The notes under the pieces: model-generated
What the model was told of the DNA's origin: nothing
What the model saw: the letters and a program-made list of their open reading frames with translations, nothing else
The model's database searches: none
Position numbers and translations under genes: made by a program
Shown: positions 11,158 to 33,000 of the stretch, in pieces
How positions within the stretch are numbered: position 1 is the stretch's first letter
Layout: the number at the start of each line of letters is the position of its first letter
From: Flaccisagitta enflata
Taxonomy: Eukaryota
Direction: 5' to 3'
Length of the DNA: 64,000 nucleotides
NCBI GenBank assembly: GCA_965153355.1
Contig: OZ231126.1
Span: forward strand, 35,712,001-35,776,000

Positions 11158-14100
11158 CTTTCCACCGGCCCCCGCTCCTTTCAGCCTTTGAGCCTCGATC
11201 CTCCGTTTGTGCTCGTGAATTTTGCGATGAAGATTTCGATCCTCGGAAATTCTTGCCGCCAAAAGCCGTTCATAGCCGTCGGCAGAAACCTCTGGAGGTG
11301 GGGGGGGGAGGGTCGAGAGAAATCCGTCAGTGGGTAAGGAGAAACGACGCAAAAGAAACTGGAGTTGGGGGAGAGGAAGAAAGAGAGAAAGACAGAAAGA
11401 AAGAAAGAAAGAAAGAAAGAAAGAAAGAAAGAAAGAAAGAAAGAAAGAAAGAAAGAAAGAAAGAAAGAAAGAAAGAAAGAAAGAAAGAAAGAAAGAAAGA
11501 AAGAAAGAAAGAAAGAAAGAAAGAAAGAAAGAAAGAAAGAAAGAAAGAAAGAAAGAAAGAAAGAAAGAAAGAAAGAAAGAAAGAAAGAAAGAAAGAAAGA
11601 AAGAAAGAAAGAAAGAAAGAAAGAAAGAAAGAAAGAAAGAAAGAAAGAAAGAAAGAAAGAAAGAAAGAAAGAAAGAAAGAAGAATGAAAGTAAGAAAGCA
11701 AGCAAGAAAGAAAGAAAGAAAGAAAGAAAGAAAGAAAGAAAGAAAGAAAGAAAGAAAGAAAGAAAGAAAGAAAGAAAGAAAGAAAGAAAGAAAGAAAGAA
11801 AGAAAAAAAAGAAAGAAAGAAAGAAAGAAAATAAGAAAGAAAAAAAGAAAGAAAGAAAGAAAGAAAGAAAGAAAGAAAGAAAGAAAGAAAGAAAGAAAGA
11901 AAGAAAGAAAGAAAGAAAAAAAGAAAAAAAGAGAACAAGTTGAAAACGGAGAGACAGAGACTAAGACATAGAAAGACAGACAAATGCGGAGTGGCGAATA
12001 GTCAATAGATAATGGCGAACTCTCTAAAACAGACTGTTGATTAAACAGGTAAAAGGTAGATGAAGGTCGTTATGCCTAATTCAATTTTGAAATAAAAGCA
12101 ACGAAAAAGCCCACATGACTTAACGATGAATTCGATCCATCAATTAATCGATTTTCTGATTGAATCGATTCGAACTTTCATTGATTCAATGGATTTTTAG
12201 TCATGCTTATTCATCTTTGTGCGGTTCGTGAAGATTTTGGTAGGGTTTTCATTCTTTATCCCTTTAGTTAAAAAAAAAATAACGAAACAACAATGTAATG
12301 AAAAAGAAAGATGAAAAGAAAAAGAAGAAAGAAAGAAAGAAAGAAAGAAAGAAAGAAAGAAAGAAAGAAAGAAAGAAAGAAAGAAAGAAAAAAGATAGAA
12401 AGATAGATAAAACATGATTCACAGACAGAATGAAGGAATTAAATCAAAGGAAAAAGATGCGGGTAATCAGATTGAAACAAGGCCAAGTAGGCCAATAAGG
12501 TGCGACGTGTGGATCGTCCAACGAATGCGTTACCCGACAGACCGACCGACCAACCGACGGACACAGCCAGTTATAGAGGTGCTTTGTCGCACCTAAAAAA
12601 TAAAAACAACCACCACAATTCAATCCAGCATGTGCATCGACTCAATGGGTTAAAAAGTCGCGACCCATCGGTCACCTTCAAGCATCCATTTGCACCTCTC
12701 ATGATGTAAATCATTGACTCTCACAATAAAAATGTCCGTCAATCATATTCCTAGGGAATGATGTACTCAATGAATGTGTTAAGTGTAAACGCACTCTTCC
12801 CGACTGTCAATTTATCTTATTCACGCGTGCATGCATTCGTGTGTTTGTGTGTTTGTGTTTGTGTGTGTGTGTGTGTGTGTGTGTGTGTGTGTGTGTGTGT
12901 GTGTGTGTGTGTGTGTGTGTGTGTGTGTGTGTGTGTGTGTGTGTGTGTGTGTGTGTGTGTGTGTGTGTGTGTGTGTGTGTGTCTTTCTCTCTCTCTCTCT
13001 CTCTCTCTCTCTCTCTCTCTTTCTCTTTCTCTTTCTCTCTCTCTCTCTCTCTCTCTCTCTCTCTCTCTCTCTCTCTCTCTCTCTCTCTCTCTCTCTCTCT
13101 CTCTCTCTCTCTCTCTCTCTCTCTCTCTCTCTCTCTCTCTCTCTCTCTCTCTCTCTCTCTCTCTCTCTCTCTCTTTGTTACCTGCACCCGTCGATTTTCC
13201 AGTGATTTGCTGCAAATGTTTCGATTTCGTCTCTTGCAGCAACCTTTCTCTTTTCGTTTCCATTTTGAGATCTGGGTCTACTTCAAAAGGTGCCTTTTCA
13301 GCCCTTTGCCGCCGCAGCAACGTTTGCTGTTGAGTTTGTTGCTGATGCTGCAATTGTCGTTGCGAAAACCGTGATTTCATTTCTTTCAGTTTTTCCTCAT
13401 CTCTCCAATGTTGAAGTGCCGCGGTAGAGCGTTGCCGCTGTGAAAGATTAGCGAGATTGAAGCTTTTTTACTAATTTTAGTGTTGAGAAAGAGAGACACA
13501 CGCACACACACACACCCACACACACACACATACACACACACGCACACACACACGCACACACACACACACACACACACACACACACACACACACACACACA
13601 CACACACACACACACACACACACAAAGAAAAAAAACACATACAAAAACACACACACACACAAAGGGCAGAAAGAGAATGAGCAGAAATAGTTAGAACAAG
13701 GCCGGATACACGGCCAGCAGTTGCGGACAGGTGGGCAGGAGCGGAAATGCGCGTATTCACACTTTTGGACTCGTGCTCACGGATCAACGGACCGAGGGAC
13801 GGACGGACCGAGGGACGGACCGATGGACGGACAAAGGCTCTTATAGAGTTGAGTGTCCGCATACGATCCTGTTGACTTCTTCTAATTAAGGTGTTGAGTG
13901 GCGTATCATTATCACTGATGAAAGCTGTTTTCCTTTCGATCGATTGAAAAATAACCCATCCTTTTTTATATGGTGTATCGAAAACATTGTTACAAAGTTC
14001 TAACCAACCATCCGACTGACCTACAAATTTCATACAATAGATTTGACTTTATCATTTTACACTTTTCATCTTTAGTTAAACAACTGTCTGACCAAAGGAA

Positions 14101-32700: not shown

Positions 32701-33000
32701 GTTATGAATCAGGTAAGAAACGCCGCAGAATTTGCAGACGGTGTCGTCTCTCGGCATTGCGCCGATTTCCGGCGGCAAAGGGTGTTGCGGGATGTAGGAG
32801 AGATCCGTCATTTCCGACGCCGACGCCGTTTGATCAACGCCAATCATCATCGTCGACGGGGGACGGATGGACGGACGAGATGATGGACGGGAAGACGAAC
32901 GAGAAGACGGTTGAGAAGACAGACGCTGCCGATTAGCGTGGATGGCACCCCCACCATCGCCTTCAGCCACTAACCTTTCGTCCAGGTCTTTAGTCAACAT
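26742..33000 (-). CDS. LEKR1: LEKR1-like coiled-coil protein (leucine-, glutamate- and lysine-rich 1), about 850 aa, 6 exons
   Basis: Phase-consistent GT-AG exons 33000-32608, 30753-29705, 29226-28878, 28599-28377, 27496-27118, 26901-26742. N-terminal motif YIPQHPLPPEIGAMPRDDTVCKFCGVSYLIHNEIKKLEE and late motif FLMDTVRKECEERYELTDALAHAKEELL match LEKR1 hallmarks, with a long E/K-rich coiled coil between. The last intron is less certain; unspliced read-through would stop at 27066. Confidence 0.88.

Follow-up and report, generated by a model that had tools for sequence, protein, structure and literature searches.

Are five neighbouring genes of the chaetognath Flaccisagitta enflata transcribed together as an operon, and does their content reflect a common role in the cilium? 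The question arises from a stretch of 64,000 nucleotides (nt) of contig OZ231126.1 (assembly GCA_965153355.1, positions 35,712,001 to 35,776,000; here called the window, whose own numbering is used throughout), in which an initial annotation had proposed a ciliary operon of LEKR1, IFT25, ARL2BP, a centrin-like gene and an LRRC27-like leucine-rich repeat (LRR) gene. The five genes were found in this order between position 33000 and about 11122, all on the minus strand as proposed (Table 1), and nothing but a Tc1-type transposase remnant, in the last intergenic gap, was found on the plus strand of the cluster. We favour the reading that the cluster is a chaetognath-type operon, in which a polycistronic precursor is cut by leader addition coupled to 3'-end formation, with a probability of about 0.6, and we likewise lean towards a transcription unit that holds three or more of the five genes. 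Co-transcription of IFT25 and ARL2BP is highly probable, and a single transcript of all five genes is a tentative proposition, somewhat short of an even chance.

The boundary between IFT25 and ARL2BP carries this reading. Thirteen marine RNA runs share 5-19% of the words of positions 19301-29300, and RNA was compared over the repeat-free segment 20786-24723 (3.9 kb), which holds two of the four gaps, using metatranscriptome contigs of runs X2, X3 and X5. The source of these contigs is not the sequenced animal but environmental relatives, with 95-99% identity to the window. A contig of 430 nt from run X2 (contig 3) contained the last IFT25 exon including its acceptor, ended at base 23964 and continued into 22 untemplated A residues, so that poly(A) is added after this base and the 3' untranslated region (UTR) of IFT25 spans 24179-23964. 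A second contig of the same run (contig 2; 830 nt) represented the ARL2BP mRNA with 10 differences in 804 aligned bases; its genomic part began at base 23963 and was preceded by 26 untemplated bases. The AG at 23965-23964 has a double role, as the 3' splice site of ARL2BP and as the bases with which the templated part of the IFT25 mRNA ends. Since poly(A) site and acceptor abut, the 389-base-pair (bp) gap between the two reading frames consists of a 216-nt 3' UTR and a 173-nt 5' UTR with nothing between them; no DNA separates the two mature mRNAs, and there is no room for a promoter between them. The IFT25-ARL2BP boundary is a zero-gap operon junction and a textbook member of the chaetognath class.

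The 26 untemplated bases, in mRNA sense AAAATTCTTTTATTTGCTTAATTAAA, are identical to the last 26 nt of the published chaetognath leader SL1 (PMC2481426, Table 3), which occurs in both chaetognath species of Marlétaz et al. 2008 (PMC2481426; the literature on which we draw was available in part, and statements about it are limited to those parts). The 26-mer had no match in the 64-kb window at up to three mismatches. An upstream cis exon was rejected as its source, because the bases are absent from the window and identical to SL1, and a copepod-type leader was rejected as well, since that leader has 46 nt and the one found here is the chaetognath one. The ARL2BP mRNA is SL1 trans-spliced, and this species' use of trans-splicing with a spliced leader (SL), on which the initial annotation had built, is borne out by this transcript. 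The leader also identifies the window as chaetognath DNA.

We also searched metagenome contigs for the source of the leader, and its 3' 20-mer was located at 47 loci. At 6 of these the full 26-mer followed GAAGCT or a variant of it and stood directly before GTAAGT or GTGAGT, in 10 copies altogether; the remaining 41 loci were unrelated A/T-rich contexts. The units are tandemly arranged with spacings of 697, 1011 and 3975 bp, and in the fold of the six distinct copies the donor pairs with the leader, next to a second stem with three compensatory pairs. This is the anatomy of SL-RNA genes. The loci adjoin U1 and U2 small nuclear RNA (snRNA) genes and histone 3' stem-loops: in L007 (519-682, 1251-1443, 1791-1822), SL1 RNA genes lie in tandem units with U1 and U2 snRNA genes, and in L018 and L023 (about 700-4200) they lie beside histone genes marked by histone 3' stem-loops. 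SL genes in ribosomal DNA clusters in general are described in PMC12460157; the linkage of SL1 to snRNA and histone repeats is possibly worth recording.

Canonical, open GT-AG models were built for four of the five genes (IFT25, ARL2BP, centrin and the LRR gene), with a longest intron of 1896 bp, in agreement with the earlier figure of about 1.9 kb. The identities of IFT25, ARL2BP, centrin and LEKR1 are solid assignments from sequence comparison, as follows. ARL2BP (coding sequence [CDS] 23790-22212; 170 amino acids [aa], four exons) matched the Pfam family ARL2_Bind_BART on two exons (E = 4.6e-14 and 2.7e-13; 53 and 50.5 bits against a gathering cut-off of 23), which together cover profile positions 16-116. 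Its three introns were verified by RNA, since X2, X3 and X5 each contributed one contig with the joints. The contigs extend to 21617 and 21630, and 14 loose letters at 21617 correspond to a 3-nt indel, so that the contig reaches about 21603; the 3' UTR is covered without a break down to this point and comprises at least 609 nt.

IFT25 was assigned by homology over the galactose-binding-like domain and by a size of about 140 aa. The four-exon model with GT-AG introns is open and encodes 143 aa, and exon 2 alone matched, among solved structures, IFT25 of Chlamydomonas (2yc2, E = 7e-7; 8ruy, E = 1.4e-6) and human HSPB11 (1tvg, E = 2.6e-6); the last exon matched 1tvg weakly (E = 0.9), and single exons had no match in Pfam. 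Microsatellites of the types (GTT)n and (ATG)n lie in intron 1. The (ATG)n array shares the reading frame of exon 2 and would, if unspliced, encode a poly-Met tract; a start within its in-frame part (25871-25694) was rejected, as ATG 26181 together with the acceptor at 25666 yields the 143-aa protein. An X3 contig (534 nt, depth 5.8) exits the IFT25 3' UTR at a donor-like CAG/GT (24079-24081, minus strand) and continues with 238 nt that were found nowhere in the 64-kb window, for which an alternative splice or 3' exon, an allele or paralogue that has diverged, and an assembly chimera are possible sources. Short contigs with a depth of up to 62 map to intron 3 at 24430-24658. An intronic RNA gene at this position was rejected, since part of the segment (24559-24677) recurs at 3257-3377 with 79% identity and looks like a dispersed repeat that is transcribed; an Rfam search of the window gave nothing at the gathering score, and around 24430-24658 only sraA was reported, at chance level (21 bits against a gathering score of 56, E = 0.9).

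The centrin-family gene was judged by the presence of four EF-hands, by closer similarity to centrins than to calmodulins and by a centrin-type C-terminal end. The model comprises three exons and 218 aa with an atypical 80-aa N-terminal extension, and it matched EF-hand families. For the last exon, centrin-1, caltractin and centrin-2 were the top matches (E about 1e-25 to 1e-26), ahead of calmodulins (1e-21 to 1e-22) by a modest lead, and the alignment reached the last residue; the annotation as centrin-like is upheld on this basis. The donor of exon 1 (21147/21146) is joined to the exon encoding FDFENKGVI in contigs that cover 21146-21365, all from X3.

LEKR1 was judged against the features of this family, namely a conserved N-terminal CxxC motif, an extended coiled coil rich in Glu and Lys, a conserved short tail at the C-terminus and a total length of about 600-770 aa. 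Of the 68 matches with E ≤ 1e-3, at least 12 carry the name LEKR1; identity was 58-77% over the N-terminal CxxC motif, and the matches are spread over molluscs, annelids, cnidarians, a sponge, rotifers and tunicates. Four blocks (32796-32626, 29249-29007, 28479-28378 and 27509-27438; tblastn with 13 homologues) are collinear with homologue positions of about 10-80, 390-480, 555-600 and 575-620. The first coding exon is 33000-32608 with the donor GAG/GTAGGT, and an alternative ATG near 32850 would fit the homologue N-termini better. The stop codon was placed via matches of the last open reading frame (ORF) to the extreme C-termini of the homologues, each of them weak and all consistent in position. 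For the last intron there are several frame-consistent choices, and the internal exon chain is partly assembled.

The fifth gene encodes an LRR protein with a Pfam LRR_8 match. A metatranscriptome protein of 839 aa (P0069) is its full-length orthologue, with 77% identity and six collinear tblastn segments on the window. Its C-terminus is 49 residues longer than that of the model, which may therefore lack a last exon below 11158. A large minisatellite with a proline/cysteine-rich unit, open in several frames on both strands (7600-10460, GC 0.53), sits just downstream of the last identified exon, and the true last exon may lie near it. In a protein-language-model search (Atlas), the best cluster was 'putative LRRC27' (0.96, 188 of 256 features), and two LRRC27 clusters were within the top three (0.96 and 0.95); the tail alone had no usable Atlas match. 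HMMER matches were dominated by generic LRR proteins and included a protein of LRRC27-like length (P0202, 545 aa) that is named LRRC40-like, and no LRRC27 entry was found among solved structures. The LRRC27 label is putative: the language-model part of the evidence speaks for it, and alignment searches gave no confirmation.

On re-measuring, the four stop-to-ATG gaps were identical to those given in the initial annotation. Potential trans-splice acceptors within them were scored by the share of pyrimidines among the 17 nt that precede each NAG. This score ranks the RNA-verified ARL2BP site (0.76) first among all AGs of its gap and thereby earns some credit. Between LEKR1 and IFT25, the pick at 26293 (sequence ttttgtctgttttttAG) would imply an LEKR1 3' UTR of about 448 nt and a 112-nt IFT25 leader without ATG. 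Between centrin and the LRR gene, the top-scoring site at 18476 lies 100 nt upstream of the ATG. Judged by sequence, both are strong candidate acceptors. As to poly(A)-signal hexamers, the verified site is preceded by a single weak variant, and the candidate sites have none upstream.

In the proposed mechanism, a promoter upstream of LEKR1 would drive a long precursor, and SL1 or another chaetognath leader would be spliced to an acceptor before each downstream cistron, while the upstream mRNA would be cleaved and polyadenylated at, or a few bases from, that acceptor. LEKR1 would stand at the upstream end and be linked to IFT25 by the acceptor at 26293, and centrin and the LRR gene would be further members or form a second, abutting unit. 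Several acceptor-like sites also lie upstream of LEKR1 (33560-33111).

A number of observations weigh against the operon reading. RNA support was obtained at one of the four junctions; there, the leader and the poly(A) tail come from one contig each, both of the environmental run X2, and are strong but single observations. Among the 24 of 65 pieces listed, none bridged 23963/23964, and no polycistronic precursor was seen; X14, a polyA run of raw reads, yielded 1 read of 12.2 million records, in which starts and ends are not visible. In Paraspadella gotoi, 10,197 of 21,072 genes, i.e., about half, are trans-spliced and 18% lie in operons (PMC12460157), and because trans-spliced genes far outnumber operonic ones, a leader alone is no proof of an operon. 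About 6,500 of the 10,197 trans-spliced genes are non-operonic (PMC12460157), which would suit five independent genes, each with a promoter in the 3' part of its upstream neighbour and an outron lost by SL trans-splicing, with a coincidental overlap of poly(A) site and acceptor. The zero spacing at 23963/23964 still permits a promoter inside IFT25, and the missing bridging record and the several-fold difference in contig depth (5.8-19.9 for IFT25, 19-90 for ARL2BP; depth is a poor measure of expression) point the same way. However, the abutment is exact to the base, which is taken in PMC2481426 as excluding re-initiation, and the five genes share one strand amid 29 kb of gene-poor surroundings, so that we regard independence as quite improbable.

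The centrin side of the cluster is less clear. Between 21616 and 21396 no pyrimidine-rich acceptor was found, as all 14 AGs score at most 0.53 against 0.76 for the verified site, and the three best AGs of the ARL2BP-centrin gap fall inside the transcribed ARL2BP 3' UTR. The stretch before the centrin ATG is A-rich and contains a TATA-like ATATAAAA (at about 21476-21469, some 75 nt before the ATG); together with the poor acceptors, it makes a separate centrin promoter a live alternative. The cluster would then consist of two or three abutting units, namely an operon of LEKR1, IFT25 and ARL2BP, a centrin gene with its own promoter, and an LRR gene that is either joined to centrin or separate. 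All three contig runs give good coverage of ARL2BP but have zero depth in the bin 21446-21577, centrin is confined to X3 with a low depth, and the transposon remnant between centrin and the LRR gene could, depending on where the centrin mRNA ends, push that spacing far above 250 bp. On the other side, with an ARL2BP 3' UTR that runs to about 21603 or beyond, the centrin ATG is no more than 207 bp away, which is below the published operon limit of 250 bp; assembled contigs cannot show transcript starts, the TATA-like word stands in very A/T-rich sequence and may be there by chance, and the LRR gene has its top-scoring acceptor at 18476. On balance, abutting units are somewhat unlikely, and an operon holding at least three of the genes is the reading we prefer. 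What stands of the five-gene proposal is the operon anatomy of IFT25 and ARL2BP with their adjacent poly(A) site and acceptor; a shared transcript of all five did not emerge.

IFT25 (an IFT-B subunit), ARL2BP (a basal-body partner of ARL2/3) and centrin are established proteins of the cilium and centriole. The ciliary theme is real for these three of the five genes and hints at a selected regulon, which is a hypothesis; the functional coherence claimed for all five held for these three, as LEKR1 came without a cilia paper and the LRRC27 label from the language model. Co-transcription would give a coordinated supply of an IFT-B subunit, an ARL2/3 partner and a centrin. LEKR1 and the LRRC27-like gene are candidates for a ciliary process by association only. 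LRRC27 is among 12 'cilium-associated' co-expression genes in gliomas (PMC8640099), and no link between LEKR1 and cilia was found in the literature searched, judged mostly by titles and the openings of abstracts; one paper names LEKR1 merely within a list, with no annotation.

It is quite possible, though short of evens, that the operon is real and its ciliary theme coincidental, with members that, as is usual in metazoan operons, have unrelated functions and tolerate a common, broad expression, and from which LEKR1 and the LRR gene gain no function. The available part of PMC12460157 describes chaetognath operonic genes as low in cell-type specificity and enriched for protein and nitrogen metabolism, i.e., for housekeeping functions, as well as for germline (oogenesis) markers; it reports no cilia enrichment and does not connect operons with cilia, a further point against a ciliary operon. 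The LEKR1 literature, the LRRC27 assignment without confirmation by alignment and the choice of the locus by a theme-seeking reader are consistent with coincidence. Yet one organelle system accounts for three of the five members, which would be rare by chance if cilium genes make up a few per cent of the proteome (an estimate, not a computed value), and LRRC27 has its cilium-associated entry in the glioma study. Moreover, mouse IFT25 is reported to be needed for sperm flagella and dispensable for somatic cilia, a syndromic form of male infertility, in which ciliary microtubules are defective, results from mutations of ARL2BP (PMC6715254) and deletion of Cetn1 leads to male infertility (PMC12123824); mouse knock-outs of all three genes are reported to give male infertility or sperm-flagellum defects. 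These phenotypes, taken with the over-representation of operonic genes among germline markers, raise the possibility of a spermiogenesis module. That all five genes form one selected operon of the cilium or sperm flagellum, maybe such a module, is nonetheless unlikely; if true, LEKR1 and LRRC27 would be assigned to flagellum or centriole assembly.

Table 1. Coordinates of genes, intergenic gaps, splice sites and repeats in the 64-kb window
Feature	Position	Strand	Details
LEKR1 orthologue (leucine-, glutamate- and lysine-rich protein 1)	26742..33000	-	homologue matches
LEKR1 to IFT25 gap	stop TAG 26744-26742 to ATG 26181	-	560 bp
Candidate IFT25 trans-splice acceptor	26293..26295	-	cgttttacttttgtctgttttttAG/TGTAAG; score 0.82, highest in the 560-bp gap
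IFT25 (HSPB11)	23964..26181	-	CDS exons 26181-26151, 25666-25560, 25428-25297, 24341-24180
IFT25 to ARL2BP gap	stop TGA 24182-24180 to ATG 23790	-	389 bp
IFT25/ARL2BP operon junction	23963..23965	-	AG 23965-23964, canonical acceptor tttcttcccaattatAG/CACC
ARL2BP (BART)	21603..23963	-	exons 23963-23674, 23214-23158, 22903-22767, 22413 to at least ~21603
ARL2BP to centrin gap	stop TGA 22214-22212 to ATG 21395	-	816 bp
Centrin-family gene	19357..21395	-	CDS exons 21395-21147, 20443-20311, 19631-19357
Centrin to LRR gene gap	stop TAG 19359-19357 to ATG 18376	-	980 bp
Tc1/mariner transposase remnant	18760..19190, limits approximate	+	antisense, within the centrin to LRR gene gap
Candidate LRR-gene trans-splice acceptor	18476..18478	-	catatttccttcgttgtcAG/TCAAGG; score 0.76, top in the 980-bp gap
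LRR gene, LRRC27-like	11122..18376	-	8 exons, 795-aa GT-AG model; exons 18376-17708, 17472-17276, 16936-16828, 16489-16349, 15655-15071, 14950-14684, 13437-13188 (or 13182), 11291-11122
Microsatellite arrays	25700-26060 (IFT25 intron 1), 11394-11830, 12860-13175, 16994-17099, 19703-20292, 20560-20785, 24724-24957, 30842-30973		
Dispersed repeat copies	31964-32113, 41254-41505, 48167-48457, 51524-51976, 55957-56246, 62386-62781		

The surroundings of the cluster are poor in genes and rich in repeats. The Tc1 remnant, predicted in the initial annotation, is present with a weak score (plus-strand ORF 18928-19188, C-terminus of Sleeping Beauty transposase, E = 0.0016) and had no Pfam match. An ORF scan of 33.1-62.7 kb gave frames that were all of low complexity or repeat-derived, and an aminotransferase-like exon at 63170-63355 (plus strand) agrees with the next gene having been placed about 29 kb away. 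This gene opens with an aminotransferase class I/II-like exon (62770-63355, plus strand, about 29.8 kb from LEKR1; weak Pfam match, E = 0.0037), which looks like tyrosine aminotransferase. At the end of the window, a minus-strand ORF (63679-63999) resembles the tail of a non-LTR retroelement protein and had no Pfam match. The microsatellite load is extreme, as most introns are filled by long arrays, among them (ATG)n, (GTT)n, (CA)n, (GA)n and those of the (GAAA) type, and a dispersed repeat family is present in at least six copies in both orientations, with the recurring translated motifs FWAAAPKG... and ...VGRSVGRSV....

SL-resolved operons are already established in chaetognaths, and the locus leaves that picture unchanged; as operons are common in this phylum (18% of genes), the operon itself is unsurprising and its gene content is the surprise. 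The locus adds a base-exact zero-gap junction in a pelagic chaetognath, which bears on the coupling of 3'-end formation and trans-splicing; to our knowledge, neither coupling of nor competition between these two processes has been studied in chaetognaths. It further adds a group of genes in which every known member is part of the cilium/centriole system. As far as we know, it is rare for an animal operon to bring together genes of a single pathway. Given proof of co-transcription, conserved synteny and co-expression, the cluster would provide guilt-by-association evidence for LEKR1 and LRRC27 and a test case for selection assembling functional operons in animals.

Among animal operons, the SL2-type operons of C. 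elegans have spacers of about 100 nt, a dedicated SL2 and members that are usually functionally unrelated, whereas in its 'SL1-type' operons upstream poly(A) site and downstream acceptor adjoin directly. Both the SL2-type operons and, in the reading we favour, the locus described here involve polycistronic precursors resolved by trans-splicing, but here the spacer has a length of 0 nt, and an operon-specific leader is absent from chaetognaths. The operons without intercistronic regions of Ciona intestinalis (cited in PMC2481426) also have the acceptor directly at the upstream poly(A) site. Like the 'SL1-type' operons, they involve a single leader class, as is the case here, although phyla and leader sequences are unrelated. 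The closest likeness is to chaetognath operons. In the RPS14-PCNA operon of Spadella cephaloptera, 3 bases separate the poly(A) site from the acceptor, which is held to exclude re-initiation (PMC2481426). For P. gotoi, operons were defined by gaps of <250 bp and at least one leader-bearing gene, which gave roughly 1,470 validated operons of up to nine genes without an operon-specific leader, enriched for protein and nitrogen metabolism and over-represented among germline markers, read as maternal transcripts (PMC12460157). The cluster shares with these operons the exact SL1 over 26 nt, genes on the same strand, a distance of 0-3 bases from poly(A) site to acceptor and an mRNA-level spacing of <250 bp at at least one and probably three junctions. 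It differs from the published ones, as far as the available parts of the reports go, in its cilium/centriole content as opposed to housekeeping and germline enrichment, in RNA support at one junction, and in lying in a genome that is far richer in microsatellites and introns.

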